A DNA stretch of 43,065 nucleotides from Candidatus Bipolaricaulota bacterium (GCA_030615945.1 JAUWYG010000002.1:1-43065), one strand, 5' to 3'; shown: positions 18,620 through 39,368, counted from the stretch's first letter. The notes: generated by a model from the letters alone, not told the origin. A program made the numbers and translations.

Positions 18620-20481
18620 TAGCCCTCCCCCCCATTTTTTGCTGCTTCGATCATCTGCTCGATCGGCTCGGTGTCAAGGACAGCGATCGCCGCGCCGCCC
18701 GGGCCGGCATGGGACCCCAGAGCCGGGGCGGCGTCGGTCACCATCACCGTTGAGGCAGGAAACCCCCGGTGAAGCGCCCCGGCGTAGTGCTGCGCGAGCT
18801 TGGGAGCAGCGGCGTGAGCCACGATGAATATCGGCGCCCCCATCTCCTGCGCGAGTTCCGTGACAAAGGAGAGCGCCTTTCTTACTGCGCGACGTCGCCC
18901 GATCGTCTTGCCGGCCGGGGCCACTTTTCCGTCTCTGACAGTGAGGATCGGTTTCAGACGAAGCAGTTCAGCGATCCTCCCTTGAATGGGCGAGAGCCGC
19001 CCCCCACGCACAAAGTACTCGACAGTGGGGACGAACACGAAGATACTCACTCCGGCTGCGGCTTTCTGGGCAACTGCACTGCATGTATCAAGTGGGAGGT
19101 CAGCGTCAATCGCGCGTGCAGCCGCCCACACCGCGAGCCCCTGCGCTGCCGAAGCGGTCCGACTGTCTACCACCTCAATCGGTACTCCGGTCTCCTCGCT
19201 TACTGTTCGGGCAGCGGCAAGGGCCGTCTGGTAAGTCCCAGAGACCTCAGCGGAAAGGTGGATCGACAGGACCCCCGCGTAGTGGCGGGACAGATATCGA
19301 TAAAGGAGAAGGACCTCGGCGGGGGTCGGCTGCGAGGTCTTGGGGAGGATCTTCGAAGTGGCGAGCCTCGCGTAGAACTGGTTCGGAGTGATCTCTACCC
19401 GGTCGAGGAGCTCTTCCTCGCCGAACGCCACCCGCGCCGGGATCACGCGAATCCGCTGAGTCGTGAGGAACGACTGGGGAAGATCGCAGATCGAATCGGT
19501 CACTAAAGCGACCCCAGCCCGCTCCACTTCGGTCGGATACGCTTTCAGTTGCACGAGCATGTCCTCGACCCTCTGCGAACGGATCTTTCCTGCCTCAGCA
19601 AGGATCTCTAGGACGTGCGCTGGGGCGTTTGTGTGAACATGAACGTGCACCTCTTGCTCAGTTCCTGCGACCACCACCGAGTCTCCAAACTGGGTGAGGC
19701 GCTGCTTTAGCGCCATCCGGTCGATCCCTTCTCCGATGAGAATCCCCTCCGTACAATAGCGGAAATCGACGCATTCCGGCACATAGCCTGTGGCGATATC
19801 GAAGTCTCTCTCTAGAACCTCGACCGCAACGGCCTCCTCTTCCTCACTGCACTCGAGGGATTCGACAAACCCCTCGAGGAAATTGACGAACCCAAGCGCA
19901 CCAGCGTCGACCACACCTGCCTTCCGCAAGACAGCCAAACGGTCTGTCGTCTCAGCGAGCGACCGCCGCGCTATCTGCAGTCCTTCCTCCAACAGGGAAA
20001 GGAAGTCACTGAGCCGCTCCGCGTTTCTCGCAATGTGATCCGCAAAATCGCTCATCACGGTGAGAATCGTCCCCTCCTGGGGATTGGCTAACGCCTCCCG
20101 CGCGCGGGTAGCGGCGCGCTTTGCTGCTTCAACGAAGTGCGTGACCGAAATCTGGATCTGATCTGCGATCCCCTCTCGCAAGCCCTGGAAGAACTGGGCC
20201 ATGATCACCCCGGAGTTCCCCCGCGCGCCGGCAAGGGCTGAGGAGGCTATCGTCGAACTGACCATAACAAGGGAGGGCTTAGAGAGATTAAGCCCGCGGA
20301 TCACCCCGCGCATCGTCGCCGCCAAGTTGGAACCGGCGTCCAAGTCGGGCACAGGAAAAACGTTGATCCGATCTAGGAGATCCTTATTCGCTATGATGCG
20401 CTGAGCGCCGGTGATCACCGCCCGACGCAGACGCTCCCCGTTCAGATAGTGTATCTTTTCCCGCCCTTCCTTTTGCACCAC
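18619..20481 (-). CDS. Dak2 (DhaL/FakA-like kinase) plus FakA central region fused to a DegV (FakB-like) fatty-acid-binding domain
   Basis: N-terminal Dak2 domain (DLDAGSNLAATM...ARGNSGVI). Central FakA/YloV-like block (YCTEGIL...GDSVVVAG...VHVHVHTNAP...RVEDM). C-terminal DegV signature (VALVTDSICDLP...PKTSQPTP). Confidence 0.7.
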   Translation of the reverse strand: MVQKEGREKIHYLNGERLRRAVITGAQRIIANKDLLDRINVFPVPDLDAGSNLAATMRGVIRGLNLSKPSLVMVSSTIASSALAGARGNSGVIMAQFFQGLREGIADQIQISVTHFVEAAKRAATRAREALANPQEGTILTVMSDFADHIARNAERLSDFLSLLEEGLQIARRSLAETTDRLAVLRKAGVVDAGALGFVNFLEGFVESLECSEEEEAVAVEVLERDFDIATGYVPECVDFRYCTEGILIGEGIDRMALKQRLTQFGDSVVVAGTEQEVHVHVHTNAPAHVLEILAEAGKIRSQRVEDMLVQLKAYPTEVERAGVALVTDSICDLPQSFLTTQRIRVIPARVAFGEEELLDRVEITPNQFYARLATSKILPKTSQPTPAEVLLLYRYLSRHYAGVLSIHLSAEVSGTYQTALAAARTVSEETGVPIEVVDSRTASAAQGLAVWAAARAIDADLPLDTCSAVAQKAAAGVSIFVFVPTVEYFVRGGRLSPIQGRIAELLRLKPILTVRDGKVAPAGKTIGRRRAVRKALSFVTELAQEMGAPIFIVAHAAAPKLAQHYAGALHRGFPASTVMVTDAAPALGSHAGPGGAAIAVLDTEPIEQMIEAAKNGGEG

Positions 20482-22435: not shown

Positions 22436-23833
22436 ATGAATCATGACCGGGTTTGTTTACGAGACAAAAGAAAGGGGTTGGTCGTCCTCGTCTTAACCCT
22501 GTGGATCCTGGTTCTTCCCCTTGGATATCAGACACGCGCCGATACCAATGGCGATACTCCAGTTATTATCCTGGAGAAGAAACAGGGGGAGGAGGGGACA
22601 CTTCAACTCATCCTTGCAAGCGCTCCCGAGGGAGTGTACATGTACGATATTACGATTTCTGTGAGGGATAGTCGCATCGTGCACATCCGCTCGGCCAGGG
22701 GAATAGCGATCGCAGGGTTCTACTTTCAAGTGGTAAAGACAAGCGGGGACTCGATCGAGTTTCGCGCGTTGGACCTTGATCGGAGCGGTGTGTTGCCAGG
22801 AGCTCGGGATGTCATCCTGGCGGAGATCGACGTGGTAGGATTGGCGAGGGGACGAACGGGAATCGATGTGGAGGTCAATAAATTTATCGACCATCGGGAC
22901 CACAGGGTTGTCCCCCGGGTGGAGTCAATCTCGTTGGAGGTGTTTACCCCCGCTCCCCAATTATCCCCGATCGGAAGCTCTGTGAAGGTTCCTCAGGACC
23001 TGGACGGGGATGGTCTCTATGAAGATATCAATGGGGATGGGAGGCTCACCCCAGAGGATGTCTCCCTGTTTGCCCTTGATATCAACAGTGAGGCCATCCA
23101 GACGCATGAAGAATCTTTTGATTTTAATGAGGATGGGAAGATAGACCTTGAGGATGTCCAAGCATTGGCCGCCTTGGCCGAGAAGGCTAGTCCCATGCTT
23201 ACTAGCCTGCGGCTGGAACAGGGAAGAGGGGAAACAGGAAAGGAGGTTGCCCTCGAATTGCTCTTGGTCAGAGGAGCTCGTGGACTGCAGACCTACGATC
23301 TGGTTCTCTCTGTATCTGACCCCCGAGTGGCCCAGATCAAGGGAATAAAAAGTGATGCGATAGATCAGCGGTTCTTTCAGATCGTTCATCAGGACCCTGG
23401 TTCCATCGAGTTTCGGGCCGCGGACTTCAGGGATCAGATCCAGCCTGGGACGGATGGCGTTACCCTGGCGACGGTTATCCTCACAGGCATGAGCAAGGGC
23501 GAGGCGAAGCTCGACATCAAGGCCAGGGTGATGACGGATGATGAAGGAAACCTGATAGAGCCGTTGGTTCAGTCAGGCGGGGTAACGATAACCGTCTCCC
23601 TCTCACCGATTGGCGACTCAACCCACCGTCCACAGGATTTGGACTACGACGGACTCTACGAGGATGTGAATGGAGATGGGAGATTGACCTTTGCCGATCC
23701 GCTTTTGTTGGCCTTCAATCTTGGTAGCGAGGTGATCCAGGGAAACCCGGCTCTGTTTGATTTCAATGGCGATGGAAGGGTCGATTTCAATGACGCGGGC
23801 ACCTTGGCCACGCTCGTCGAAAAGTTTGAATAA
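22436..23833 (+). CDS. Secreted protein with two tandem units, each a cohesin-like beta domain followed by a dockerin-type Ca-binding repeat pair
   Basis: Signal peptide. Unit 1 is about aa 43-248 and unit 2 about aa 254-465. Each ends with SPIG(S/D)S..PQDLD(G/Y)DGLYED(I/V)NGDGRLT...FDFN(E/G)DG(K/R)(I/V)D(L/F)(E/N)D, which are duplicated EF-hand-like dockerin loops. Confidence 0.6.
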   Translation: MNHDRVCLRDKRKGLVVLVLTLWILVLPLGYQTRADTNGDTPVIILEKKQGEEGTLQLILASAPEGVYMYDITISVRDSRIVHIRSARGIAIAGFYFQVVKTSGDSIEFRALDLDRSGVLPGARDVILAEIDVVGLARGRTGIDVEVNKFIDHRDHRVVPRVESISLEVFTPAPQLSPIGSSVKVPQDLDGDGLYEDINGDGRLTPEDVSLFALDINSEAIQTHEESFDFNEDGKIDLEDVQALAALAEKASPMLTSLRLEQGRGETGKEVALELLLVRGARGLQTYDLVLSVSDPRVAQIKGIKSDAIDQRFFQIVHQDPGSIEFRAADFRDQIQPGTDGVTLATVILTGMSKGEAKLDIKARVMTDDEGNLIEPLVQSGGVTITVSLSPIGDSTHRPQDLDYDGLYEDVNGDGRLTFADPLLLAFNLGSEVIQGNPALFDFNGDGRVDFNDAGTLATLVEKFE

Positions 23834-24264: not shown

Positions 24265-24823
24265 GCGCTCACATTATATCTGAAAAAGGCATAGCCATCG
24301 TGAGGTGGCAGCGCAAAACCGTGGGTCTCTTAGAGACAGCCAGGTTGCCAGAGACAGGGAGGCTAGGATTTAATGTTGACTCTGTCGGGGGCGACCTTGA
24401 TTGTAGCTAGGAGATCTTTTTCTTTACCCCGTATTATTTTCGATGTGTGGTCCCCCTGGCTTTCCGGAGTTAGGTACGTTAAAACATTCACCGAACCTCC
24501 ACATCCCCTTCACGGTAGCTTTACAACTGAGAAGTAAAGTAGCGATGTACGAGAGCAACAATTCAGTATTGTGCCATTATGCTCTTGAATTCCGGAGCTT
24601 CTTGTACTGTAGATCGCAGTTCAGGAGTAGATTTACGCAGAGGAGAGCGAGGCTAGTCTAGGAAGAAGGAGGCACACAGCTATGACTGTTTTCCGGAAGC
24701 GTCCCCACGCTAGTAACCGAATTGAGTTATTCACTGTGTGCCTTCGTCATTATACCACAAAAGCCATCGTTTTGCCGTAATGGCAGTTACAACAGCAGAA
24801 AGAGAAAAAAGGAGATATCAAGA

Positions 24824-26698
24824 ATGAAGGAATTGATGTGGAGAATCGGGAGTCGAATGGAGTCTGGACAAGGGAAGGGACAGCACAGAAGGCGGTTGGT
24901 TCTGCTAGTTGGGATCGCGCTGCTTCTCCTCTTCTCACAGGCGCCGGCCCATCGTGTGCAAGCGGCACCGCCTCTGTGTGTCATGGAGATAGCGACGGAC
25001 AAGTCCGTATACCATCCGGATGAGCCCGTTCAGCTCAATATGTGGATTAAGGTAAATGCCAATCTAGACCTACCAGCAATAGAGAATGCACGCCTGGAGG
25101 TGGAATTAAAGCAGCCGTTCGGGACCTTTGTAACCCTAACCCATCGAGGAGGCATCTCCCTGCGCAAGGGAGCGGAGTGGGAGGAGCAGTTGCTCTCCCT
25201 TCCCATAACCGGAGAACCCTTCCGAAACATGGGCAACTATGAAGCCCATGCGGTGCTCCTCTCGCAGGCCGGTGAGATCTATTGCGAGGCCTATACTGTC
25301 TTCGCTATTGAAAGTATCTTTGGGAGGATGCCCGGCACGCGGACGCTCATCGTCACCTCAAGAAGGACGGAGCTGACGGAGCCGTTCGTATCCAAGTTGG
25401 CTGTCTGGCTTGAAGCAGCTTACCAAACCAAGGTCCAGGTACTCTATCAGGAAGGAGTCTATGAGGCCTATCAGAGCGGGCTCTATCGGGACTTTGATGT
25501 GCTCATCTATTACGCGACGGACTATCAGCAGTCCCCGCCCCCGGAGTTGATCAAGGACATCTTCGAAGGCGAAGGGAGAACCAAGAAGAAGGTGGTCTGG
25601 ATCGGTTACCACCTGGATAAGGTTCAGGCCTACCTGCGGCTGTATGGCTTAAGTTATGGAACGCTCTCTGGGGGGAATGAGCCGGGGAAACTGCTCTACC
25701 TCGATTCCGGAGTGAGCTACGACCTGCGCAACCCTGATTGCATCTCCGTTGAGGTGATCAACGACGACCTCGCTCGCGTCCGTGCCACCGTGGATGATGC
25801 CCCAATCATCGTCAGCGCCAAGCAGACCTATTATCCGGAGGACGGTGAGTGCTTCTACTTCGTCGGCTTCCATCCCACCTCCTACATTGCTCCCTTCGGC
25901 GCGCATCTCGTCTTCTGTGACATCCTAAATGAGGTCTATGGGATCGAGCGAGGGAAGATAGCCCTGGTGAGGCTGGAGGACATTCATGCCTTTACCGATT
26001 CTCAACAGTTACTCTCCATTACCGGCTTCTTGAGAAGCGAACGTGTTCCCTTCACCCTGGCCTTGATCCCGGTATACGTGGGTGGAGATGAGATAGAGAT
26101 CCGCTTAAGCCAGGATAGGGACTTCAGAATCAAGGTTAAGAACGCCCTCTTAGATGGAGGAGAGATCGTCCTCCATGGAGCTACCCACCAATATGATGAG
26201 GTGACCGCTGTGGATTATGAGTTCTGGGATGAGAAAACCGGCACTCCCATAGGCGGCACGGAATATGCCGAACAGCGCGTGGCAGATGCGCTGATGGAGA
26301 TCGAGTTCTCCGGACTTAGACCCTATCTTGCTGGCTGGGAGACCCCGCATTATAAAGCTGATGAAGAGGCCTATACCGTGTTTGAAAGATACTTTGAACT
26401 GATGTATGAGGACCCCCGTTGGGGGTTCGACCTGAAACGCATCCCCTATCCGGTGGAGACTGAGCGCAACTTGTATGTCCGCTCGCAATTGAGCTATGTG
26501 CGGGCGGACTCCCCAGATACGGATGTGAGCACGATACTCCAGGAGGCAACTCTACTAGCCGGCCTGGAACATGGCGCATTGGCCTCTTTCCACTACCATC
26601 CGGAGATGGGGCTCGAAAGGTTAAGGACTATCATCCAGGGCTTAAAGGAGCAAGGCTGGACCTTCAAACCGATCTCCTCCTTGCTAGGCACTGAATAA
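24824..26698 (+). CDS. Secreted DUF2334 (polysaccharide-deacetylase-like) protein with an N-terminal Ig-like domain
   Basis: AGGAG lies 7 nt before the ATG at 24824; the ORF-track extension to 24722 has no support. Signal peptide. LVRLEDIHAFT...VPFTLALIPVY...EIVLHGATHQYDE...EFWDE fits DUF2334. Confidence 0.65.
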   Translation: MKELMWRIGSRMESGQGKGQHRRRLVLLVGIALLLLFSQAPAHRVQAAPPLCVMEIATDKSVYHPDEPVQLNMWIKVNANLDLPAIENARLEVELKQPFGTFVTLTHRGGISLRKGAEWEEQLLSLPITGEPFRNMGNYEAHAVLLSQAGEIYCEAYTVFAIESIFGRMPGTRTLIVTSRRTELTEPFVSKLAVWLEAAYQTKVQVLYQEGVYEAYQSGLYRDFDVLIYYATDYQQSPPPELIKDIFEGEGRTKKKVVWIGYHLDKVQAYLRLYGLSYGTLSGGNEPGKLLYLDSGVSYDLRNPDCISVEVINDDLARVRATVDDAPIIVSAKQTYYPEDGECFYFVGFHPTSYIAPFGAHLVFCDILNEVYGIERGKIALVRLEDIHAFTDSQQLLSITGFLRSERVPFTLALIPVYVGGDEIEIRLSQDRDFRIKVKNALLDGGEIVLHGATHQYDEVTAVDYEFWDEKTGTPIGGTEYAEQRVADALMEIEFSGLRPYLAGWETPHYKADEEAYTVFERYFELMYEDPRWGFDLKRIPYPVETERNLYVRSQLSYVRADSPDTDVSTILQEATLLAGLEHGALASFHYHPEMGLERLRTIIQGLKEQGWTFKPISSLLGTE

Positions 26699-26718: not shown

Positions 26719-26979
26719 GTGAAGAAAACTAACACGGCGGCAAAGAGAAGGGTCCAGTTCATCTTCCCCAGCCAGACCATCGAGGAGCTTGACCGGCTGA
26801 AGGAGCAGATGGGGGCCTCCTCGCGAACCGAGGTGTTGAAGACCGCCATCGAGCTTATGCATTGGGCTATGGCACGGCTGGCAAAAGGTGAGAAGATCGC
26901 GGCGGTAGGGAATGATGAGATATCGGAGACCATCGCTATTCCCGGTGCTCACTCCTTTACAAAAGAGCCGAGGCCGTGA
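26719..26979 (+). CDS. Ribbon-helix-helix protein embedded in the polysaccharide operon
   Basis: 86 aa with a GTG start: RRVQFIFPSQTIEELDRLKEQMGASSRTEVLKTAIELMHWA, a strand-helix-helix pattern. Its stop overlaps the GT2 start by 4 nt. Confidence 0.55.
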   Translation: MKKTNTAAKRRVQFIFPSQTIEELDRLKEQMGASSRTEVLKTAIELMHWAMARLAKGEKIAAVGNDEISETIAIPGAHSFTKEPRP

Positions 26980-28307
26980 CCATCCCGACTGATTTCCTCA
27001 CCTTCTTCTTCCTTTTCTACTGCGTCCTATACAACCTCTTCCTCTGTCTATGCTTCCTCGTCTTCCAATTGTTTTCCAGAAAGGGGAATCGGGCTGGTAA
27101 AGGCGTGGCTGCAACAGATTCAGTTAAAGAGCCGCCGATCATCACGGTGATGATCCCCGCACTGAATGAGGAGCAGGTCTTGAAAGAGACGGTCCAAAGA
27201 TTGCTCGCCCTCCCCTATCCTGGTCGGTTAGAGATCCTAATCATCGACGACTACAGCGACGATAACACGGCAGCCATCGCAGACAGGCTGAGCCTTGCAT
27301 CTGAGAGGGTCTATATTTTGCGCAGAGGCCCCTCTTGTTCGCGGCGCGGAAAGGGGGATGCCTTGAACCATGCCTTCTCTCACCTACTTGCCAGCTTCCC
27401 CAAACGAGATAGGGAAAACTGGGTCATCGGGGTCTTCGATGCCGACGGCCGGGCAGTCGAGGACGACTTTCTCATCGAGGTTGGGAGAGTATTCGGAGAC
27501 GATTCGGTAGCTGCTGCCCAGTGCGGGGTACGGATCAGGAACGGCCATCATCTGCTTGCCGCCCTTCAGGATGTCGAGTTTGCCACCTTCTCGTTTATCA
27601 CCCAAACCGTCCGTGACCGAACCTCAGGGGCGGTGGCTCTGGGAGGCAACGGGCAGTTCATCCGCGCCGCCGTTCTAAATCGGCTGAGCCAAGAGGGAGG
27701 CTGCTGGGATGTTTCAGCCCTCACCGAGGATTTGGATATCGGGGTCCGTATTCATTTAGCTGGTGGACGGATCAGGTTTATCAATCGATGGGTGGAGCAA
27801 GAGGGAGTAGAGTCCTTTAAAGCGCTCTTCAAGCAGCGGCATCGCTGGGCGTGGGGAACGCTGCAGGTCTTCTCAAAGCACCTCTTGAGTGGGAGAGTTT
27901 TTTTAGCCAAGCTTCCTCTAGTCAAGAAACTGGATTTGCACTACTACCTGAGCTTCTGGATAGTGCCCTTTGTCGTTCTCTTCTCCTTTCTCCTCTCCCT
28001 TCTTGACCTCACAGGGATTTTGAAGATCACGAATACTTTCGGCGTGGCTTTCCTGCTGGCTAACTCATTCAGCTTTATTCCAATGATGGTCTTGGGATTG
28101 GTGTGGGCCAAGGTGCCAACACATAAGATATTGTATTTGGTCCCCTTGGCAGTGATCTATGCCTATCACTGGATTCCTGTGCTCCTGGCAGGATTAGTGA
28201 GTATTCTTACCCATAGGCAGCCGCACTGGGTGAAGACCAAACGCTACGCGCTTGTGGAAATGAGCACAGAAAAGGAAACGATCGCAGTGGAGGTAATAGC
28301 AAAGTGA
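26976..28307 (+). CDS. Processive family-2 glycosyltransferase (PgaC/IcaA/cellulose-synthase-like, membrane-embedded)
   Basis: N- and C-terminal TM helices. Motifs IPALNEE, IIDDYSDDNT, FDADG, TEDLD and QRHRWAWG (D,D,D,QxxRW). Confidence 0.8.
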   Translation: MTIPTDFLTFFFLFYCVLYNLFLCLCFLVFQLFSRKGNRAGKGVAATDSVKEPPIITVMIPALNEEQVLKETVQRLLALPYPGRLEILIIDDYSDDNTAAIADRLSLASERVYILRRGPSCSRRGKGDALNHAFSHLLASFPKRDRENWVIGVFDADGRAVEDDFLIEVGRVFGDDSVAAAQCGVRIRNGHHLLAALQDVEFATFSFITQTVRDRTSGAVALGGNGQFIRAAVLNRLSQEGGCWDVSALTEDLDIGVRIHLAGGRIRFINRWVEQEGVESFKALFKQRHRWAWGTLQVFSKHLLSGRVFLAKLPLVKKLDLHYYLSFWIVPFVVLFSFLLSLLDLTGILKITNTFGVAFLLANSFSFIPMMVLGLVWAKVPTHKILYLVPLAVIYAYHWIPVLLAGLVSILTHRQPHWVKTKRYALVEMSTEKETIAVEVIAK

Positions 28308-30421
28308 GATCCGAAAAAGTGCTCATCGTCGTTTCCCTACTACTCGGCCTGGGATTGATGCCCTTCAGCGCAGTGGCTTCTGTCTCGCCTCAACACCTGG
28401 CCCTCTCATTCATCCTGACCGAGATGATGAACGAAGAAGGGGGCATCTATACTCAATATCGGACTCTCCCCAGTTCTGAAGAAGGAGCAGCCGCGGGCCA
28501 CGAGGTCCTGCTCCAGAACAATAGCCTGTTGATGCTCTACGCCGCTCGAACAGGAGACCAGCAACTCCTCGATCAACAAGTGGAGGTAATCAAGGATTAC
28601 TTCCTGGAAGAGAACCTCGGGTTGCTCCACTGGAAGTTGGCCTCCACGATGCACCACTCGGAGAGTTCCTGGGGGACCTATTCCAATTCCCCGGGGGACA
28701 GCCTGCGGGTGGCGGAGGTTCTCCTCCTGGCCTATGAGTATTGGGAAGATGAGACCTATGAAGAACTAGCCCTCAAGATTGGCGAGGGGCTCAAAAGATA
28801 TAACATCGCGCCGGATAAGACGCTGCGCTATTATGCTTCCTGGACCCCGGCGCTCGAGTCAGCGGGATATGGCGATAGAGTCGTTCTGGCGCAGCTCGAC
28901 TTTGGGGCTATGGCCAGATTGACTCAGCAGGATAGGGCTTGGGAAGAGTTCATCGTCGTGAACCTAGAGATAGCTCTCTCGGGGATGACCGATAAAGGAC
29001 TATACTATCAAGACTATCTTCCTGAGCAGCAGAAGTATGAAACAGGCAACGGTAGCATGATCGAGATGGCCCGGGTTGCATATCATCTTGCCGTCTATGG
29101 TCGAAGTCTTGGTGATCCTGCTGCGTCAGATGCAGCGCAAAAATTTCTTGCCTTTGTCAAAGAGGAGTATACAACCAAGGACAGGATACCCGGACGATAT
29201 GATCCTGAGACCGGCATACCGCTGACAACCTGGGAGAACATCGCTGTATATGCGCTGATCGCCCGAATTGCTCTAGAGCTTGAGGACTCCTCGTTTGCTG
29301 AGGAGATCGTCGAGGAGAAGATCCTGCCTCTCCAACAACTGGACCCGCAGTCTCCTGTCTATGGTGCGTTTACAGTTAGATTCGACGATGCCTATGTCTC
29401 GGACACACTTGAGGCTCTTCTGGCCCTAGTGACCCGTGGAGGTCCTGCGGCTGTGACAGAGCAGGAGCCCATTCATGCTGTATGGTATCTTGGTTGGCAA
29501 AAGGAAAGCTATCTTCAACCCAGTGTAGTAGATGATCTACGGCAGATTCAGTCAAGGCTTTGCCCGAACTATATCGGTCTCTCCGCCATCGTTTATCAAG
29601 ATAAGAAGACCTCCTCCGACCCCTATCGCGATCCAGAGAGAACCGCAAGCGATGAGGCCCTCCGCCACGTGATCTCCCAAATCCATCGGATGGGGATGGG
29701 GGTAATCCTTCTCACTCCCCTATTGCCCGACGACGGAACATGGGAGGGGGCAATCACGCCCGAAGATGTCAGCGTATGGTTCGAGCACTGGCGAGAGATC
29801 CTCCTGCATTACGCCGAGCTGGCGGAAGAGACCCGCGTAGAGATCCTGCTCCTGGGCTCGGAGCTCGTCACCCTGCGCGACCGAACGAATGATTGGAACA
29901 GGCTAATAGTGGCCATCCGAAATCGTTATCACGGCAAGCTCAGCTACTCGGTCAACTTCTGGCTCAATCGCGATGGATATCGGCAGGTCCTGAAGATGTC
30001 CCAATGGAAGCACATGGATTACATTGGAGTGACGGGCTACTTTGAACTTACCGACAAGAACGATCCTTCCGTAGAAGAACTTGAGGCAGCTTGGCATAAT
30101 GATCGCCATGACCAGGACATCTTGGCTGATCTAGAGGGCTTGAACAGGAAATATGAAAAACCGGTCGTCTTTTGGGAGATCGGTTACTTTAGTAAGGATG
30201 AGACTAACGTCTATCCCTGGAACTACCCTCGCCCAGGTGAGGTGGATGAGGGTGAGCAGACTGACTGTTGGACTGCATTTCTGAATGTATTTCAAGGTAT
30301 CGATTGGTTCAAAGGATACGGGATTTATGCCGAGCAAGTAGGGCTGCCGCCGAAGCCCCTAGGTTATGATGTGCTAGGGAAACTAGCAGAAGAGCTGCTG
30401 AGAAGGGAGTGCAGTGAATAA
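28304..30421 (+). CDS. Large secreted two-domain glycosidase-like protein (helical N-terminal half plus TIM-barrel-like C-terminal half)
   Basis: Signal/anchor sequence. The C-terminal half has clan GH-A-style strand-end motifs (ILLLGSELV; VVFWEIGYFS) and conserved aromatic residues. The family cannot be assigned by eye. 4-nt overlap with the GT2 gene. Confidence 0.5.
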   Translation: MRSEKVLIVVSLLLGLGLMPFSAVASVSPQHLALSFILTEMMNEEGGIYTQYRTLPSSEEGAAAGHEVLLQNNSLLMLYAARTGDQQLLDQQVEVIKDYFLEENLGLLHWKLASTMHHSESSWGTYSNSPGDSLRVAEVLLLAYEYWEDETYEELALKIGEGLKRYNIAPDKTLRYYASWTPALESAGYGDRVVLAQLDFGAMARLTQQDRAWEEFIVVNLEIALSGMTDKGLYYQDYLPEQQKYETGNGSMIEMARVAYHLAVYGRSLGDPAASDAAQKFLAFVKEEYTTKDRIPGRYDPETGIPLTTWENIAVYALIARIALELEDSSFAEEIVEEKILPLQQLDPQSPVYGAFTVRFDDAYVSDTLEALLALVTRGGPAAVTEQEPIHAVWYLGWQKESYLQPSVVDDLRQIQSRLCPNYIGLSAIVYQDKKTSSDPYRDPERTASDEALRHVISQIHRMGMGVILLTPLLPDDGTWEGAITPEDVSVWFEHWREILLHYAELAEETRVEILLLGSELVTLRDRTNDWNRLIVAIRNRYHGKLSYSVNFWLNRDGYRQVLKMSQWKHMDYIGVTGYFELTDKNDPSVEELEAAWHNDRHDQDILADLEGLNRKYEKPVVFWEIGYFSKDETNVYPWNYPRPGEVDEGEQTDCWTAFLNVFQGIDWFKGYGIYAEQVGLPPKPLGYDVLGKLAEELLRRECSE

Positions 30422-31226
30422 AGCTATGAGAGTATCTACATTAAGCAACCTGGGTGGATATCACTATATATCCAGGAGTAGATATGAATTCAAATACTTG
30501 GTTAGGCCGGAGGTTGCTGAAAGAGTGGTCGATTTCCTAGCACCCCATCTTGAAATGGATGAGCATTGTCGCGGAAGGGACAGCAATTCCTATACCGTCA
30601 GAAGTATATATTTTGATAGCCCTGATTTTGAATGTTTTCACGAAAAGCTTGGAGGGCAGAAACACAGGGAGAAATTTAGAATCAGAACTTACAACAATCC
30701 GGGCTCCAGACCCCTCTTTTTGGAGAATAAGATAAAGGACGGTTTATCCTACGTAAAAGACAAAGTCACTCTCAATGCGGATACCCTGAAAGCAATAAAG
30801 AACCTGGACTATGACAGTTTAAGCGAGGTGGATAGGCATGACAAAGATAAGCGGATCCTTGACAAGTTCTTTTTCTATATTTATCGCAAGGCCTACTCTC
30901 CTGTCGTGCTAGTAGTATATGACCGAGAGGCGTATGTCTATCCGGGGCAAGATACGATTAGAGTAACATTGGATAAAAATCTCAGGGCGAGGATGTTTCC
31001 CAATTTGGCACAGATATATGACGAAGAGAGATTAGAGTATCTGCTTTACCACTGGATCATTTTAGAGATTAAGTTTACCGATATTTTGCCGCGATGGATG
31101 ATGCCGCTGAACTCCCTCTTTTATCTGAAGCGACAAGCTTGCTCCAAATACTGCACATCTGTGGCTCATTTCATCGGTGAAATCCCCTCTTTCAAGGATG
31201 GTTTGGCCTATGTTCGGAGAATCTGA
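30414..31226 (+). CDS. VTC-domain (CYTH-like triphosphate tunnel, polyphosphate-polymerase-like) protein
   Basis: RYEFKYLV...YTVRSIYFDSPDF...REKFRIRTYN...LFLENKIKDG...KDKV is the characteristic tunnel-strand pattern. The GTG at 30414 follows AAGGGAG and overlaps the upstream stop by 8 nt. Confidence 0.75.
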   Translation: MNKAMRVSTLSNLGGYHYISRSRYEFKYLVRPEVAERVVDFLAPHLEMDEHCRGRDSNSYTVRSIYFDSPDFECFHEKLGGQKHREKFRIRTYNNPGSRPLFLENKIKDGLSYVKDKVTLNADTLKAIKNLDYDSLSEVDRHDKDKRILDKFFFYIYRKAYSPVVLVVYDREAYVYPGQDTIRVTLDKNLRARMFPNLAQIYDEERLEYLLYHWIILEIKFTDILPRWMMPLNSLFYLKRQACSKYCTSVAHFIGEIPSFKDGLAYVRRI

Positions 31227-31896
31227 ACCTATCGTAGTTGCCTGGATTGACGTACTCAGCACCATATCGCTGAGTCTGCTGCTTGGAATTTATGTAGCTT
31301 TCGTATATAGAACAGTGACTCCTGGATTTAACTACTCAGTCTCCATTTTGCATACTCTTCTGTACCTTTCCATGATTGTTTCCCTAGTGATGCTGATAAT
31401 CTCAAATCAAATCGCACGCGCATTCACCCTTGTCGGGGCGCTTGCCGTCATCCGCTTTAGGACGCCGATTAAGGATGCCAAGGATGCGGCGTTCATATTT
31501 CTCGCCCTTGCCGCAGGCATGGGGGCAGGGGTAGGCATGTATCTAGAAACAGCCTTGGGTACAACTCTTATCGGCGTCTTCATGTTGCTGATACATTACG
31601 CAAAATTCGGCTTGCGCGCGAAGAGAGAGACTCTGGTCAAGTTCACCGTACCCCTTAACGGCGAAGAGACTTCTCTTTATCACAGGGGGATTTTTGAACG
31701 CTTCCTTCGAGAGTACAAGCTCATAAATGCCCGGTCTTTGCATGAAAGCAGGAGACTGGAGCTAACATTTCTTGTCAAACCTCAGAAGGCGACGGACATG
31801 ATCAAGTTCTCCCAGGCGCTCTCTTCCATACCGCAGATCGAGAAGGTATCCGTAATAGTTAGTGAAGATGAGGAGCTGACTCAGAATATCTTTTAA
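31177..31896 (+). CDS. DUF4956 multi-pass membrane protein
   Basis: About 5 TM helices with the family motif LVGALAVIRFRTPIKDAKDAAFIF. The start is uncertain (GTG 31177, ATG 31198 or ATG 31210), and every option overlaps the VTC stop at 31226. Confidence 0.7.
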   Translation: MKSPLSRMVWPMFGESEPIVVAWIDVLSTISLSLLLGIYVAFVYRTVTPGFNYSVSILHTLLYLSMIVSLVMLIISNQIARAFTLVGALAVIRFRTPIKDAKDAAFIFLALAAGMGAGVGMYLETALGTTLIGVFMLLIHYAKFGLRAKRETLVKFTVPLNGEETSLYHRGIFERFLREYKLINARSLHESRRLELTFLVKPQKATDMIKFSQALSSIPQIEKVSVIVSEDEELTQNIF

Positions 31897-31916
31897 TGGC
31901 TACAAAGGAGGGTAAG

Positions 31917-34625
31917 ATGAACTCTTCATTGAGCGTTGGAAACTTGCAACTGAGATGGTGCATAGTAGGCGCACTTTTGAGCCTTTTTCTGGCAGCTACT
32001 GTCGTTCCTGCCCAGACGCAATCGGTCGTCATAAATGAGTTCTTGGCCTCTAACGGCACGATATTAGCCGATGAAGATGGAGACTACGAAGATTGGATCG
32101 AGTTTTATAACCCGACAACCGAGCCAATAAACCTGGACGGCTATACCCTGACCGACAAGCCGGATATCCCTAATAAGTGGACGTTCCCAGCAGTCACGAT
32201 CCAACCGAATGGATTTCTGCTCATCTGGGCCTCCGGCAAGGATCGCCGCACGCCAGGTAACTGGGATTTCAAAAGACCGCTCATCCTAGAGTTTGAAAGT
32301 GCGGGCTACTATGACGGAGATTTTGCGAGGATCTTGGTCAATGGCGAGGACAAGTCCCTGAACCTCAGGGGCACGAATATTGTGAGGCTTGATGAGCAGG
32401 GCGACTATATAGAAAGCACAGTGTATGATACTTTTGAATCCCCCGATGCTGATGATGATATGGTTCGCTATTTCGAGAACTTGTCGAATGGAGAGATCGT
32501 CATCTTTGCGATCAGAGATGAAGCGTCCGACAATTTGAACTCACAAGCGAGATCTGCCTTAGAAGCTTTAGGCAGTAAATATATAGGGCAATTAGGGCAT
32601 CAGGATTCTTGGGGCATGATTAGCGTAGTGGGGCAGGGGAAGCTCGCAGAAGACTATCAGCCTAGCAGTGAGGGCCCTGCTATGGCCAAGCTTGCAAGTA
32701 AGATGACTTTGCACACCAATTTCAAGATCAACAAGGATGGCGAGTTTTTGGGCCTTTACGCCCCCGATGGGACTGAAATCGACTCTGGGAAGTTCGTTAG
32801 TCAGGTGCGTGATGTCTCCTTCGGCCGTCAGCCTGACGGAGGGGAAGGCTGGTGTCTCTTCTCCGAACCGACCCCGAGCGCCCCGAACGATACAGCCTGC
32901 GCAACTGGGATTGCCGAGCCACCTGAACCTTCCACGAGCAGCGGATTCTACGAGGGGCCCATTACAGTAACATTGTCCGCAATGCCAGAGGAGGTAGCGA
33001 TCTATTACACTCTGGATGGTTCAATACCAACAGAGGCCAGCCCGCGATACATTGATCCCTTAGTCATCGACAGGACGCAAGTCCTCCGAGCCCGCGCCTT
33101 CAAGGATGGTCTGATTCCAAGCCCAATCAGGACATATACCTATCTCATAGACGAAGACGTCCATCTGCCGGTCCTCTCATTGGTGTCCGATCCGGCAAAC
33201 TTATGGGACGATGAGATCGGTATTTATGTAGAAGGATGCTACCCAGCTCATCCCAACTATGTGCAGCACGGTCGAGAATGGGAACGACCGGTGTCAGTAC
33301 AATTCTTCGAAAAGGATGGCTCACTAGGGTTCGCATTGGGCGCAGGCATTCGCATCTTTGGAGGATACACTAGAATTTACCCGAAAAAGAGCTTTGTCTT
33401 GCATTTTCGCGAGCGATATGGCCAAGATCGGCTGGACTACCCCGTGTTCTCCGGGGATGAACCAGGTAAGCCTGACCTGCAAAGTTTGAAGAGTCTTGTA
33501 GTAAGAAATGCTGGGGAAGACGGCTATTGCAGCAATCCCCGAATCCGCGATCCTCTAATGCATACTCTATGGTCAGAGGAAGGCGGGCTAGTTTCAGCGA
33601 AAAGGTCTGTTTCCGTCTATCTCAACGGAGTACCATGGGGCATTTACAACCTCCGTGAGCATATCGACACAGATTATATCGCCACAAACTTCGGCGTTAA
33701 AGACTTTGATTTGATCACTGAGGAAAGAACTGTTAAGGCAGGTGATGCAGTCCACTGGGACGCCACGCTTTCATTCTTCGAAGGCCATGATTTATCCTCA
33801 GATGTTAATTACGCCCAAGCACAAAAGCTCATCGACGTCAAGAACTTTACAGATTTCCAGATCTTCCAGATATATGGTGCAAATATCGATCTAGTAGCCA
33901 ATCTAGTAAAATTCAGGCCTAGGACCCCCGAGGGAAAATGGCAGTGGATCATGTGGGATACAGATCATGCCTTCGCGCTGGAATCATACAATCCCGTTTC
34001 ACACAACACGCTTGCTTGGGGAACGCGGACCAGACCACAGCCCGATCTCGGACCGCCTTGGGATGATGAAAGCACTTCGTGGTCAACCCTGATACTAAGG
34101 AAGTTGCTGGAAAACGAGGAATATTGTAATTACTTCATCAATCGTTTCGCGGATTTATTGAACACCACATTGCACCCGAAGAATGTCATCGCCAAAATCG
34201 ATGCGCTGGCCTCGATCATCGAGCCGGACATCCCTCTGGAGATGGCTCGTTGGAGCAGCGAGTGGGGAGGAACTCTTGAAGAATGGTTAGCGAATGTTCA
34301 AGGGCTTAGAGACTTTGCAAAACAGCGCCCGGGCTTTGTACGAGAACACATCATCGAGGAGTTTGGGCTTATGGGCACAGCGCTTCTGACCATCGAACCG
34401 CCATCAGGTGAAGGCTCCGTTAGGGTAAACACGATCTTACCAACGACCTACCCTTGGCATGGCTCGTACTTTCAAGGCATCCCGGTGAAGTTACAGGCTG
34501 AACCAGCGCCAGGTTATAAATTTACCGGTTGGGGTGATGCTTCCCTGCCCAGGAGCGCCATCGTCGTTGTTTCGTTGCCCGAATCCTACAGCGTTCAGGC
34601 TCTCTTCCTCCCATATGAGAAATAA
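31917..34625 (+). CDS. Secreted CotH-family kinase-like protein: split lamin-tail domain with a nested FAM3/ILEI-like domain, chitobiase-C/Fn3-associated domain, CotH domain, C-terminal Ig-like repeat
   Basis: AGGAGG lies 5 nt before the ATG at 31917; an alternative ATG at 31896 overlaps the upstream stop. Signal peptide. LTD (INEFLASN...DWIEFYNP...LDGYTLTD). CotH core ([10 protein letters not shown]...[9 protein letters not shown]..PKKSF...LVVRNAGED...IRDPLMH). Confidence 0.8.
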   Translation: [902 protein letters not shown]

Positions 34626-34683: not shown

Positions 34684-35802
34684 GTGAAGATTCTAACGAT
34701 TTTCGGCACAAGGCCTGAGGCGATCAAACTTGCTCCGGTTATCAAGGAATTGCAAAAGTCCCCGCTGGTCGAACCGCGGGTGTGCGTCACGGCACAGCAC
34801 CGTGAGATGCTCGACCAGGTGTTGGAGGTGTTCCACATTGTACCCGACTGTGATCTGGACATTATGCACGAAGATCAGAGCCTGTTTGACATCACATCTC
34901 ACGCCCTCCGATTGCTCGAGGATGTGCTAAAGGAAGAAGGGCCTGACATCGTATTGATCCAGGGGGACACCACGACGGCATTTGTCGCCAGCCTTGCTGC
35001 CTACTACTTAAAGATCAAGATCGGCCATGTGGAGGCTGGTCTGCGTACAGCTGATAAGTTCAACCCCTTCCCTGAGGAGATCAATCGGAGGCTTGTGGAT
35101 GTTCTGTCCGATCTCTGGTTTGCCCCCACACAAAAAGCTGAAGCAAACCTGCTCCGGGAAGGATTCCCTTCCGGAAACATCTTTGTCACGGGAAACACGG
35201 TGATCGATGCCCTATTTTTCACCTTGAATCGAGAAGTCCCGATCGCGCGCCAGCAGTGGCTCAGCGATCTGGGGCTATCGAGGGGAGATTCGCGACTGAT
35301 CTTGGTCACCGGCCATCGAAGAGAGAGTTTCGGTGAGGGCTTTAAGCAGATCTGCTACGGGTTGCAGAAGATCGCAGAGCACAACAAGGATCTTCAGATC
35401 GTCTACCCCGTACACTTAAATCCCCGTGTTCAAGAACCGGTACATCGTATCTTAGGAGGAATAGAGAACATCAGCCTGATCGAACCGTTAGACTATGAAC
35501 GGTTTGTATGGTTGATGAATCAGTGCTATCTGGTATTGACCGACTCCGGAGGAATTCAAGAGGAGGCCTCCTCATTGGGGAAACCGATCCTTGTGATGCG
35601 GGAGAAGACCGAGCGTCCGGAGGCGGTTGAAGCAGGTATTGCTAGGCTAGTCGGAACAGATTGCGACAAGATATTCACAGAAACGCAGCGGCTGTTAGAC
35701 AATTCTGCCATCTATGAGAAGATGGGAAAAGCAATAAGCACGTTTGGCGATGGCCGGGCAGCTGAGCGGATCGTTGAAATACTGCTAAACCATGTTAAGT
35801 GA
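34684..35802 (+). CDS. wecB: UDP-N-acetylglucosamine 2-epimerase (non-hydrolysing)
   Basis: MKILTIFGTRPEAIKLAPV...QGDTTT...HVEAGLRT...PFPEE...LTDSGGIQEE. Confidence 0.92.
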   Translation: MKILTIFGTRPEAIKLAPVIKELQKSPLVEPRVCVTAQHREMLDQVLEVFHIVPDCDLDIMHEDQSLFDITSHALRLLEDVLKEEGPDIVLIQGDTTTAFVASLAAYYLKIKIGHVEAGLRTADKFNPFPEEINRRLVDVLSDLWFAPTQKAEANLLREGFPSGNIFVTGNTVIDALFFTLNREVPIARQQWLSDLGLSRGDSRLILVTGHRRESFGEGFKQICYGLQKIAEHNKDLQIVYPVHLNPRVQEPVHRILGGIENISLIEPLDYERFVWLMNQCYLVLTDSGGIQEEASSLGKPILVMREKTERPEAVEAGIARLVGTDCDKIFTETQRLLDNSAIYEKMGKAISTFGDGRAAERIVEILLNHVK

Positions 35803-36183
35803 GGGGGATGTATTCACGCCTTTGCTTTTTTGAAAAAGGGAGAAAGCTGTTTCAAGAGGCTGGGACTCATAAGCGATGGCAAGACGCACTTTGCTCATTC
35901 CCATTTACCTCCTGAATGTGTTTTTTGCGCATCCAGGGAGGCTTTCGGTAACCCGGCTATCTCTTTACTTTGAGACCCGTGGCTTTGCGCGCCTGGATCG
36001 CTCCAGTGTTACCATTTCGTTGTCTCCCGCAAGCAAGTGACCCTTTCGGGGTCGAAAGGACTGCTCTTCTTCTACCACCTCCTTTGCCTTAGTATTGCTA
36101 TAAATGCCCGCTCACCTTTGTGAAAGGCGAAGGGGTACACCGATCAATTGCTCGTGCATCTTCGTCACTGTAGTAGATCGTCG

Positions 36184-38273: not shown

Positions 38274-39368
38274 CTACTCGTCGAGGCGTCTTCCTTCTTC
38301 CCACAAAACGTGGAAGAACTGCTCATAAGGAGCGGCAACGAGTGGAAGACCGATGAGTGCGAGGTCGACCTCGTTGTTCTTCTCCAAGGCGTAGTAATTC
38401 CAATTCGTCGAGCCCACAAGAACCGTCTCTTCATCTATAATTACCAGCTTGCAGTGGGTCGTCTCTGAGGGATCGTCAAGGCGGATCTTGACCCCATGTA
38501 AGTGTAGGTAAAGCGCTGCTTCCAGATTCTCCTCGGCCGAGCCAGGATAGAAGGCACAGTCATCGATTAAGACTTTAACATCTAGCCCGCGAGCGGCCGC
38601 ATCGACCAAGGCGCCCAGGATTTCGTTTGAAAGGCTTCCTTTGTACTGCGGATAGTAGGAAATCCGGTACATCACGACATGGATCGATCGCTTGACCCGG
38701 TGGAGGAGTTCGAGGAGCAGGGAGGCGTAGTTTGCAGTACCCACAGTCTCCGGTATTGGAATAAGGAGCGGACCCTCTCCGGTTAGGAGGCCCAGATCAA
38801 GCCTGATCCCGCCAGGTGGCAGGTTCCCCCTCCACAACCTGTCAAAGTATGTCGCAAACACTTCCCCCACCTGCTCGTCTTGCACCTTCACGTTTGCCTG
38901 TTCCTGATCGGTGAAAGCGTAGTGGTTCCAGTTTGAAGAACCAAGGATTACCACCCGCCGATCGACGATCACCAGCTTGGCGTGGATGGTAACTGCAGGA
39001 TCATCGAAGCGAGCCTCAATCCCATGTACCTTAAGAAATTCAATTGTCGGCCGGTTCTTTTCAGTGATCGATGTGGACCATTCGCTCTCATCGAGAAGGA
39101 CGCGTACCCGTACTCCGCGGGAGGCCGCCGCGAGTAGCTCATCCCATAGGGGTACCTCATCAAGCTGGGCGTTGGAGAGCAAAAGGTCGATCGACTCCTC
39201 CGCCGCGGCGAACGTCTCTTTGACGCAACAGCAATAAATGTTCTCCCCCGGTCGATCGATCACTGGACAAACGAGCGTCTGGGCGATGAGGCCCGCCCCA
39301 ACCGCGAATAGAACGAGGAAAAAGAGAGCCGTCTCTCCCATAATCCGCCATTGCAGCCGTCGATTCAT
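38274..39368 (-). CDS. Membrane-anchored/secreted phospholipase D superfamily protein with two HKD motifs
   Basis: HAKLVIVDRRVVILGSSNWN and HCKLVIIDEETVLVGSTNWN, plus an N-terminal TM helix. Confidence 0.85.
   Translation of the reverse strand: MNRRLQWRIMGETALFFLVLFAVGAGLIAQTLVCPVIDRPGENIYCCCVKETFAAAEESIDLLLSNAQLDEVPLWDELLAAASRGVRVRVLLDESEWSTSITEKNRPTIEFLKVHGIEARFDDPAVTIHAKLVIVDRRVVILGSSNWNHYAFTDQEQANVKVQDEQVGEVFATYFDRLWRGNLPPGGIRLDLGLLTGEGPLLIPIPETVGTANYASLLLELLHRVKRSIHVVMYRISYYPQYKGSLSNEILGALVDAAARGLDVKVLIDDCAFYPGSAEENLEAALYLHLHGVKIRLDDPSETTHCKLVIIDEETVLVGSTNWNYYALEKNNEVDLALIGLPLVAAPYEQFFHVLWEEGRRLDE

Follow-up and report, generated by a model that had tools for sequence, protein, structure and literature searches.

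A VTC, DUF4956 and CotH gene triad in a Candidatus Bipolaricaulota exopolysaccharide operon as a candidate module for polyphosphate synthesis and export

The locus and its three proteins

The subject of this study is a 43,065-nt stretch of DNA from a Candidatus Bipolaricaulota bacterium (GCA_030615945.1, JAUWYG010000002.1:1-43065), which we call the window, and three adjacent genes in it that encode a VTC protein, a DUF4956 membrane protein and a CotH-family protein (the triad). An earlier note on this DNA had proposed that the triad makes polyphosphate (polyP), exports it and feeds an extracytoplasmic kinase. Judging from sequence comparisons, we believe that these genes probably do make polyP and pass it out of the cell. 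Export of polyP is the best-supported reading of our results; the further step, in which CotH takes its phosphate from polyP, is speculative.

All three open reading frames (ORFs) are present on the plus strand (Table 1). They are part of a run of eight same-strand genes, from about 24.7 to 35.8 kb, that overlap by 4–17 nt or are separated by gaps of 58 nt or less. The order is DUF2334, a ribbon-helix-helix (RHH) protein, a glycosyltransferase family 2 (GT2) synthase, a glycanase of glycoside hydrolase (GH) types GH8 and GH113, VTC, DUF4956, CotH and WecB. The bacterium is uncultured, and the stretch is chromosomal, with housekeeping genes (polA, ruvC, folP, murJ, dxr, ftsH and plsY) around the locus. 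The nearest named relatives of the three triad proteins come from metagenome-assembled genomes (MAGs) of Candidatus Bipolaricaulota/Acetothermia, at 55–66% identity. GC content and GC at third codon positions (GC3) are 0.42 and 0.49 for VTC, 0.48 and 0.55 for DUF4956, and 0.51 and 0.55 for CotH, whereas the GC3 of every other gene in the window is 0.60–0.73. The lower GC3 of the triad suggests that the module was acquired, or moves, as a unit.

Table 1. Genes and RNA elements of the operon, with positions counted from the first letter of the window
Feature	Position	Strand	Basis and remarks
Cyclic di-GMP (c-di-GMP)-I riboswitch aptamer, upstream of the DUF2334 gene	24278..24352	+	Rfam RF01051, 58.9 bits (gathering score 35)
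DUF2334 protein, operon gene 1	24722..26698	+	Pfam DUF2334, 120 bits; N-terminal hydrophobic segment; start may be ATG 24824
Small ribbon-helix-helix (CopG-like) protein	26719..26979	+	Pfam RHH_1, 20.6 bits, at threshold; 20-nt gap before, 4-nt overlap with next gene
Membrane-embedded GT2 processive glycosyltransferase (PgaC/IcaA-like synthase)	26976..28307	+	Pfam Glyco_tranf_2_3, 110 bits; four hydrophobic segments
Secreted two-domain glycanase	28304..30421	+	Pfam GH113, 149.6 bits; N-terminal hydrophobic signal
Soluble VTC protein of the triphosphate tunnel metalloenzyme (TTM) type, predicted Vtc4-type polyP polymerase	30414..31226	+	Pfam VTC PF09359, 161.7 bits (cut-off 23)
DUF4956 (MgtC/YhiD-like) membrane protein, proposed polyP conduit	31177..31896, likely start ATG 31210	+	Pfam PF16316, 45.6 bits (cut-off 30.6)
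Exported multidomain CotH-family phosphotransferase (predicted)	31896..34625, likely start ATG 31917	+	Pfam PF08757, 151.2 bits (cut-off 23.8)
WecB, non-hydrolysing UDP-N-acetylglucosamine (UDP-GlcNAc) 2-epimerase giving UDP-N-acetylmannosamine (UDP-ManNAc), final operon gene	34684..35802	+	NCBIfam TIGR00236, 507.8 bits (cut-off 210)
Second c-di-GMP-I riboswitch, convergent on the operon 3' end	35944..36023	-	RF01051, 51.4 bits; membership of the system uncertain

The VTC protein has 270 aa and a single domain, with the Pfam match spanning model positions 2–234 of 235. We found no hydrophobic segment in it, and neither an SPX nor a transmembrane domain; all 120 listed VTC homologues are also single-domain. 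The AlphaFold2 (AF2) model (pLDDT 86.1, pTM 0.83) has eight long strands. When we searched it against the PDB with Foldseek, the top 13 matches were all yeast VTC tunnel domains (E-values of 3e-16 to 3e-12), and the best match by fold was 3g3q (TM-score 0.69, E=2e-15). The protein is thus soluble with a Vtc4-like tunnel, as the earlier note had described it, and among solved structures its model is closest to the VTC tunnel domains.

To map the catalytic residues, we built a profile from 29 bacterial homologues and aligned it with full-length yeast Vtc4 (PDB 8i6v_E, in which chain numbering equals residue numbering). All of the basic tunnel residues, whose presence the proposal depended on, have identical counterparts. 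Vtc4 K200 corresponds to K27 of the window protein, R264 and R266 to R89 and R91, E279 and K281 to E104 and K106, K294 to K115, Y359 and R361 to Y169 and R171, R373 to R183, E426 and K428 to E218 and K220, and S457 and K458 to S244 and K245. Within the 29 homologues, every position of this catalytic set is invariant but for K27, which at least 90% of them share. Deposited structures of inactive mutants (R264A/R266A and E426N) map to conserved columns of the bacterial alignment, and the R264A/R266A/E426N triple mutant is a published, catalytically impaired form of Vtc4. With homology this strong, it is plausible that the protein is a Vtc4-type polyP polymerase.

It could in principle be a triphosphate-tunnel enzyme of another kind, for instance a nucleotide cyclase or an enzyme that hydrolyses tri- or polyphosphate, in a module that processes or senses a different phosphorylated ligand. 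The TTM superfamily is catalytically diverse, and triphosphatases and cyclases are found among the lower-ranked structural matches of our model. The bacterial proteins also keep a glutamate in the first strand (E25, part of an ExExK-like ancestral motif) where Vtc4 has a threonine, and they are without the SPX and transmembrane domains of Vtc4. However, all residues on which the polymerase activity of Vtc4 is known to depend are conserved, and hydrolytic TTMs match the model only at E-values of about 1e-7 with TM-scores below 0.5, which is about 8 orders of magnitude weaker in E-value than the match to VTC. We consider a different enzyme very unlikely.

The DUF4956 protein belongs to a widespread family (7,759 cluster representatives at 50% identity, E<=1e-3). 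We collected 119 homologues, all with PF16316 and nearly all 228 aa long, and because of this length the true start is probably ATG 31210. The overlap with the VTC gene that had been pointed out earlier is therefore real, but it is probably 17 nt and not 50 nt. Fusions of VTC and DUF4956 were found neither in the 120 VTC homologues, nor in the 119 DUF4956 homologues, nor among the best 150 of the 7,759 representatives, which are of single-domain length. Hydrophobicity indicates four to five membrane helices, so the description as a multi-pass protein is correct. The AF2 model, which has moderate confidence (pLDDT 70.7), places helices at residues 12–36, 44–64, 68–82 (short), 90–108 and 111–131, followed by a beta-alpha-beta-beta-alpha-beta C-terminal domain for which Foldseek returned weak ACT-like or ferredoxin-like matches.

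The motif IRFRTPIKD is present as stated, and its R-F-R is invariant in 32 homologues. The full set of invariant residues is R70, A71, F72, G76, A77, R82, F83, R84, F97, G103 and G107. The invariant arginines are at the ends of the short third helix, and there is also a glycine-rich helix. By the positive-inside rule, we infer a cytoplasmic location for the RFRTPIK loop and the ACT-like domain. The match to the NCBIfam MgtC/YhiD model NF007431 is colinear and almost full-length, with E=0.008 and 15.8 bits (cut-off 214). Just 2 of the 119 homologues have a PF02308 (MgtC) match, and JGI calls some members YhiD. We do not claim DUF4956 as a member of the MgtC/SapB/YhiD family, going by these matches, but the layout is similar.

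The start of the CotH protein is probably ATG 31917, since there is a strong Shine-Dalgarno sequence (AGGAGG) 7 nt upstream. Its modules are, in order, a signal or anchor, LTD, an ILEI/POMGnT1-stem-like domain, CHB_HEX_C (Fn3_assoc), the CotH kinase domain (PF08757 positions 1–321 of 322) and a weak InlB-B-like region. For the ILEI domain there is a match (E=3.6e-9) to the stem domain of POMGnT1, which binds carbohydrate. A profile of the CotH domains linked to VTC genes matches Bacillus cereus CotH (PDB 5jd9) with E=5.4e-25. In our active-site comparison, which covers two aspartates, D665 and D688 of the window protein align with B. cereus D224 and D247 at an equal spacing of 23 residues, and from this shared spacing we take them as the equivalents of B. 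subtilis D228 and D251. The B. subtilis CotH mutants D228Q and D251A are kinase-inactive. The catalytic loop is one residue shorter (D-x3-N) in the clade of the window's CotH. Each catalytic aspartate is kept in 29 of 35 CotH domains near VTC genes; the exceptions are extra paralogues in loci with multiple CotH genes.

The window protein has a single N-terminal hydrophobic signal or anchor, which agrees with the earlier description of a protein with a signal peptide. An N-terminal hydrophobic signal is also present in 34 of the 38 complete linked CotH ORFs, and the Bacteroidota CotH proteins that we examined by Pfam have C-terminal sorting domains of the type IX secretion system (T9SS). For these two reasons we consider the linked CotH proteins to be extracytoplasmic.

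Gene neighbourhoods of the VTC-DUF4956 pair

We ran a pattern scan on one genome per species (185,579 species) and obtained 438 VTC relatives. The best 80 of these 438 loci were analysed, together with loci from protein look-ups, and neighbour families were called with hidden Markov models (HMMs) built for this analysis. In the loci with enough sequence, DUF4956 was immediately downstream of VTC in 73 of 75. The two exceptions are second VTC paralogues (CotH-VTC and then LytS/LytTR genes) in genomes that have a separate full locus with DUF4956, including the adaptor gene described below. In the reverse direction, 4 of 4 distant DUF4956 genes adjoin VTC, and the two remain adjacent when the order is permuted to CotH-DUF4956-VTC. 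The pairing looks obligate.

The second paralogues without DUF4956 are themselves unusual. In these Bacteroidales loci (L039, 7693-12644, and L052), the VTC gene has the gene of a T9SS-secreted LTD-CotH protein on one side and a LytS/LytTR two-component system on the other.

Such an arrangement of VTC and DUF4956 might be fortuitous, or synteny inherited without shared function. Related Bacteroidota MAGs account for many of the 80 loci, and when we clustered the ORFs, the other recurrent neighbours (DnaA, cysteine synthase, LMW phosphatase, NTP transferase and PD-(D/E)XK) were rejected as housekeeping lineage synteny. However, the pair occurs in at least 8 phylum-level lineage labels, including Bipolaricaulota, Bacillota, Bacteroidota, Calditrichota, Acidobacteriota, Chloroflexota and Alphaproteobacteria, the triad is seen in three gene orders, and its GC3 is the lowest in the window. 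These distribution data effectively refute chance adjacency, and we regard it as extremely improbable.

CotH was within the flanks of 28 of 82 loci, and of 11 of 12 in the clade closest to the window. When present, it tends to be near: 19 of 44 CotH genes are within 500 nt of the pair, a density of 2.5 per 10 kb as compared with 0.14 or less beyond 5 kb (about 18-fold), and 35 of 44 are on the strand of the pair. For 39 loci we had at least 9 kb on both sides; 17 of these had CotH, 31 had the adaptor gene, 9 had both and none had neither. Two of four distant LTD-CotH relatives (one of them from Bacillota) are followed by DUF4956-VTC, in swapped order. The proposed co-occurrence of the three families is thus conserved, most strictly for VTC and DUF4956 and less generally for CotH, given the 17 of 39 fully flanked loci. 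The linkage of CotH is frequent, tight and proof against permutation of the order, but it is not universal, and CotH is an accessory part.

Two further loci had unexpected company. In L090 (10001-22979), the genes of an extracellular contractile injection system (Pvc16, sheath, tube, baseplate spike and PAAR) begin about 2 kb downstream of an LTD-CotH gene that has no VTC or DUF4956 nearby. In L003 (4208-6104), on a 3.7-Mb contig, there is a group II intron (D1-D4 and D5/D6 models and a reverse transcriptase ORF) a few kb upstream of a VTC-DUF4956-CotH triad.

Immediately upstream of VTC, 63 of 76 evaluable loci have a conserved gene for a protein of about 355 aa. The lineages with this gene are Bacteroidota, Calditrichota, Chlorobiota/Ignavibacteria, KSB1, Latescibacterota, Rhodothermales and one Hyphomicrobiales MAG; we take these phyla to be diderm. 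All five of the upstream proteins that we scanned match several HlyD/RND/ABC adaptor models in NCBIfam (E-values of 1e-6 to 1e-14), all of them under the curated cut-offs. The Pfam HlyD_3 match was above threshold in two loci only (L050 and L054), and two others (L085 and L087) had weak HH_YBHG and Beta-barrel_RND_2 matches. In one Cytophagaceae locus (L004) a TolC-like OEP gene directly follows DUF4956. The adaptor is absent from the Bipolaricaulota, Bacillota and Anaerolineae loci, and the operon in the window is also without it. A weak 'Phytase-like' gene upstream of the adaptor in 5 loci was rejected as too weak and too rare.

Clustering of neighbouring ORFs in the adaptor loci found no other conserved transporter gene, which makes DUF4956 the simplest candidate for the inner-membrane partner of the adaptor. 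The upstream HlyD-like gene suggests that DUF4956 may be an export component. This association is absent from the papers we retrieved, and it makes the export hypothesis directly testable.

One adaptor locus deserves separate mention. In L085 (1-10906), a metagenomic contig, adaptor-VTC-DUF4956 is about 1.7 kb downstream of a pst/phoU cluster (pstSCAB-phoU), with two opposite-strand genes between, and is followed by a gene for a 710-aa protein of the alkaline phosphatase superfamily (Sulfatase/Phosphodiest). The pst/phoU neighbourhood is a direct genomic link to phosphate homeostasis.

The operon and the route proposed for polyphosphate

The other operon genes point to a polysaccharide. The DUF2334 protein is possibly a membrane-anchored or exported enzyme similar to polysaccharide deacetylases: a profile of three sequences gave weak CE4-deacetylase-like matches in the PDB (best E=7e-4), and phmmer against the PDB gave no match. 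The GT2 synthase matches the NCBIfam models for the XrtP-associated glycosyltransferase and for PgaC_IcaA, both under the equivalog cut-offs. In the glycanase, residues 30–375 are GH8-like (PDB 3ren, E=8.5e-21) and residues from about 396 to 701 resemble GH113 beta-1,4-mannanases (E about 1e-19); Pfam labels only the GH113 part, and there was no DUF4832 match at E<=0.01. The wecB gene is downstream of CotH in a related locus (L009) as well. The combination of WecB, which would supply UDP-ManNAc, with a PgaC-like GT2 synthase and a GH8/GH113 glycanase hints at a beta-linked hexosamine polymer as the product. Scans with Pfam and NCBIfam found no Pel families in the whole 43-kb window, and no sporulation or CotB/CotG-like genes turned up in the family scans of the window.

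A scan of the operon for sigma-70 promoters and terminators gave no more sites than shuffled sequence. The riboswitch upstream of the DUF2334 gene is followed by a long hairpin and a U-run (fold of 24270-24620) that resemble an expression platform of the transcription-terminator type. L009 and L010, two relatives with the full operon, also have a riboswitch of this clan at the equivalent place upstream of DUF2334. We conclude that the triad is embedded in a synthase-dependent exopolysaccharide operon under the predicted control of c-di-GMP. With no pel genes in the window, this is not a Pel locus. Immediately upstream of the operon and its riboswitch (22436-23833, plus strand) is a gene for a protein with dockerin type I and EF-hand-like calcium-binding repeats.

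Behind the second riboswitch, on its own strand, come AGGAGG and a 39-codon ORF (35904 to 35785, minus strand) that runs into the end of wecB. Either a small protein or antisense RNA reaching into wecB and cotH could be under the control of this riboswitch. We looked for the 39-codon ORF in L010 as well, where the minus-strand riboswitch precedes a different gene, for a 103-aa RHH-like protein. The two riboswitches of L010 (Acetothermia JdFR-48 operon; 2976-3051 and 18856-18935) have the c-di-GMP-I-GGC variant RF03167 as their best model, not canonical c-di-GMP-I, so the ligand of that lineage may differ.

We also noted several genes elsewhere in the window. A PLD-superfamily protein (38274-39368, minus strand) has two HKD motifs, an N-terminal hydrophobic segment and a weak match to polyphosphate kinase C-terminal domain 1 (E=5e-8); the match probably reflects the shared PLD fold, and it is worth recording near a polyP locus. 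A 568-aa protein with an NAGPA phosphodiester-glycosidase domain (10601-12307, plus strand) overlaps the start of murJ (lipid II flippase, 12304-13818, plus strand) by 4 nt, and the overlap may mean that the two are translationally coupled. Two ORFs of the minus strand encode unusual fusions: in one (1942-3426) a cytidine/dCMP deaminase domain is combined with HATPase_c_4 and a winged helix, in the other (3513-4862) a potassium-channel pore domain is combined with a pentapeptide-repeat protein. Also on the minus strand, a 620-aa ORF (18619-20481) joins FakA-like Dak2 and middle domains to a DegV fatty-acid-binding domain, which fuses both components of a fatty-acid kinase.

This gene set has been described before. 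For streptococci, clostridia and bifidobacteria, Whitfield et al. 2020 (PMC7112168) named four accessory genes that directly adjoin Gram-positive pel operons: cotH, DUF4956, DUF4832 and one for a 'poly-phosphate polymerase'. The NELoc-2 locus of Clostridium perfringens has VTC genes, CotH and a 'chitin synthase', and after each VTC gene, where DUF4956 would be expected, there is a gene annotated as 'tubulin/FtsZ' whose product is predicted to be in the cytoplasmic membrane. In Streptococcus intermedius each accessory gene has been deleted (mBio 2025, PMC12345266), and deletion of DUF4956 or CotH reduced aggregation, which depends on Pel, by more than 50% in sputum medium. The earlier note, which knew of no functional study, is therefore outdated on this point. 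The 2025 authors proposed a connection with phosphate metabolism and wrote that this synteny does not extend outside Pel loci (PMC12345266); the many related loci without polysaccharide genes contradict the second statement. A review of the distribution of Vtc4 treats eukaryotes only. The triad as a gene set is in the literature, then, and the mechanism is not; the window is a non-Pel variant with riboswitch control.

Our leading reading, which we hold tentatively, is that the three genes form one module in which VTC makes polyP, DUF4956 conducts it outward and extracellular CotH uses it on the matrix. As a first step, soluble VTC would build polyP from ATP in the cytoplasm, as its strong homology to Vtc4 predicts. 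DUF4956, its obligate membrane partner, would then receive the nascent chain and conduct it across the membrane, a role suggested by comparative genomics and chiefly by the pairing and the adaptor. The channel of yeast VTC is lined with basic residues that are needed for translocation, and translocation there depends on a lumen-positive potential. The bacterial geometry may be equivalent because the cell exterior is likewise positive, and the outside-positive membrane potential would help the chain across much as the lumen-positive vacuole does. In lineages with an outer membrane, the dedicated HlyD-like adaptor would carry the product onward. The third step is speculative: exported CotH, which combines modules of a glycan-binding type with an intact catalytic core, would act on the polysaccharide of the operon or on matrix proteins, with exported polyP as its source of phosphoryl groups. 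This would solve the lack of ATP outside the cell, and the tight and repeated juxtaposition of CotH and the pair also motivates it.

A number of points weigh against this reading. The most serious comes from S. intermedius, where deletion of VTC had no reported effect on aggregation (PMC12345266); since the DUF4956 and CotH deletions did have an effect, a strictly linear pathway from VTC through DUF4956 to CotH is disfavoured. The DUF4956 deletion also raised Pel while the CotH deletion lowered it (PMC12345266). In the Foldseek search the membrane domain of DUF4956 had no solved counterpart, neither a transporter nor a VTC chain. The family closest to it, MgtC, is known as a regulator and not as a channel. 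The adaptor assignment leans on sub-threshold HMM matches. CotH is missing within 10 kb in more than half of the loci, and no pair is seen within 10 kb of the other two of the four LTD-CotH relatives. ATP is the phosphodonor of all characterised CotH kinases, and we saw no sign in the sequence of a switch from ATP to polyP. Our literature search found no biochemical study of any bacterial VTC, DUF4956 or secreted CotH. The initial proposal is partly supported. Its export idea gains independent support from the adaptor in 63 of 76 loci; the deletions speak against a linear pathway, polyP as the phosphodonor of CotH is speculative, and CotH is an accessory part.

Some of the same observations would fit DUF4956 as an MgtC-like anchor or regulator with an ACT sensor. 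PolyP would then not leave the cytoplasm, where it would either store phosphate or energy or regulate the synthesis of polysaccharide, and the shared location with CotH and matrix genes would be co-regulation. The resemblance to MgtC/YhiD (the E=0.008 match, the YhiD names and the few PF02308 matches), the ACT-like domain, the lack of a match to a solved transporter and the one locus beside pstSCAB-phoU are all in line with this, and the opposite effects of the two S. intermedius deletions on Pel look regulatory. However, a regulator leaves the upstream adaptor gene and the TolC-like gene of L004 unexplained, as well as the exclusive association with secreted or surface proteins and the invariant arginines at the membrane edge. 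We think it quite unlikely.

The main rival accepts export and separates CotH from it. PolyP would serve as a structural polyanion of the matrix that cross-links a partly deacetylated, cationic hexosamine polysaccharide, as extracellular DNA (eDNA) does for Pel, and CotH would act independently of polyP, either as a kinase that uses ATP before or at export or as a non-catalytic binder of glycan or matrix. The triad does accompany synthase loci of the hexosamine type: Pel, the 'chitin synthase' of NELoc-2, and here the PgaC-like GT2 synthase with DUF2334, the GH8-like domain and WecB. Pel is described as a cationic polymer that cross-links eDNA, as worded in the title of a reference. Since CotH is not found near many of the adaptor-VTC-DUF4956 loci, there must be a use for export that is independent of CotH, and some extra CotH paralogues are without catalytic residues. 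On the other hand, CotH is repeatedly juxtaposed to the pair in three gene orders, which argues for a direct functional tie, the CotH of the window keeps its catalytic residues, many triad loci are without any polysaccharide synthase, and the deacetylase assignment of DUF2334 is weak. We consider this explanation unlikely as a whole.

Export of polyP with use by CotH can also be stated in a bolder form. VTC-DUF4956, with the HlyD-like adaptor in diderms, would be the first dedicated polyP secretion system of bacteria, and the CotH proteins would be the first extracellular kinases driven by polyP, which phosphorylate exopolysaccharide or matrix proteins or attach polyP to them under the control of c-di-GMP. 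In this strong form we find the claim doubtful. If it were true, polyP would be an exported energy and phosphoryl currency for the chemistry of the biofilm matrix.

To our knowledge, polyP synthesis in bacteria has been attributed essentially to PPK1 and PPK2, and the means by which they deliver it to the cell surface or the medium around them has, as far as we know, not been explained. A Vtc4-like polymerase with an obligate membrane protein, and with an adaptor in many phyla, is a concrete and testable candidate for a polyP exporter, and DUF4956 is widespread. Coupling to CotH offers a testable answer to how an extracellular kinase is supplied with phosphoryl groups. It could also account for the accessory genes that streptococci, clostridia and bifidobacteria, pathogens among them, have at their Pel loci. 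To the published description we add that the triad extends beyond Pel loci, that the association with an adaptor argues for export, and that a predicted c-di-GMP riboswitch controls the triad in a Bipolaricaulota-like lineage.

Comparison with known systems

The closest published counterpart in gene content is the set of Gram-positive Pel accessory genes (S. intermedius SIR_1591-1594). Both have the same three families and a secreted glycoside hydrolase on a synthase-dependent exopolysaccharide operon, and both have a link to c-di-GMP. In contrast, the window is without pelD, pelE, pelA(DA), pelF and pelG, its synthase is a GT2 enzyme and not PelF/PelG, and its hydrolase is GH8 plus GH113 and not a DUF4832 protein.

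The kinase domain of the window's CotH is homologous to that of Bacillus CotH (PDB 5jd9/5jda) and has both inactivation-sensitive aspartates at the same spacing. It differs in being part of an exported protein of about 900 aa with LTD, ILEI and CHB_HEX_C modules, in its shorter catalytic loop, and in its context, which has neither sporulation genes nor a nearby gene for a CotB/CotG-like substrate rich in Ser, Lys and Arg. CotH has been described as a distant relative of the Fam20C-type secretory kinases. There is also an analogy with Fam20B and POMK, glycan kinases of the secretory pathway with a kinase-like fold: the window's CotH joins a kinase domain to a carbohydrate-binding-like module of the POMGnT1-stem/ILEI type in a polysaccharide operon. 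These eukaryotic kinases use lumenal ATP, and we know of no glycan-kinase activity for any CotH.

DUF4956 has a similar size and layout to MgtC/SapB/YhiD proteins, about five helices and then an ACT-like cytoplasmic domain, with weak colinear similarity. It is far under the family threshold, however, and has its own invariant RAF...GA...RFR signature and its own place next to VTC (73 of 75 and 4 of 4). As in tripartite exporters, an adaptor-like gene directly precedes VTC-DUF4956 in loci of the Bacteroidota type, and in L004 an OEP gene follows; the presumed inner-membrane part is not an ABC, RND or MFS transporter.

Finally, we compared the module with the yeast VTC complex. The bacterial VTC is without the SPX sensor, the fused C-terminal three-helix membrane domain and Vtc1-type partners. 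Its partner is DUF4956, with MgtC-like helices and an ACT-like domain and with no fold match to VTC chains. Control would be by c-di-GMP, and perhaps by the ACT domain, instead of inositol pyrophosphates, and activity and export are predicted only. In both, the tunnel fold is the same and the catalytic residues are identical, and a cytoplasmic polymerase is genetically coupled to a membrane protein. Basic residues are found at the proposed DUF4956 conduit as they are in the yeast channel, and the destination of the chain would be topologically equivalent and electrically positive.

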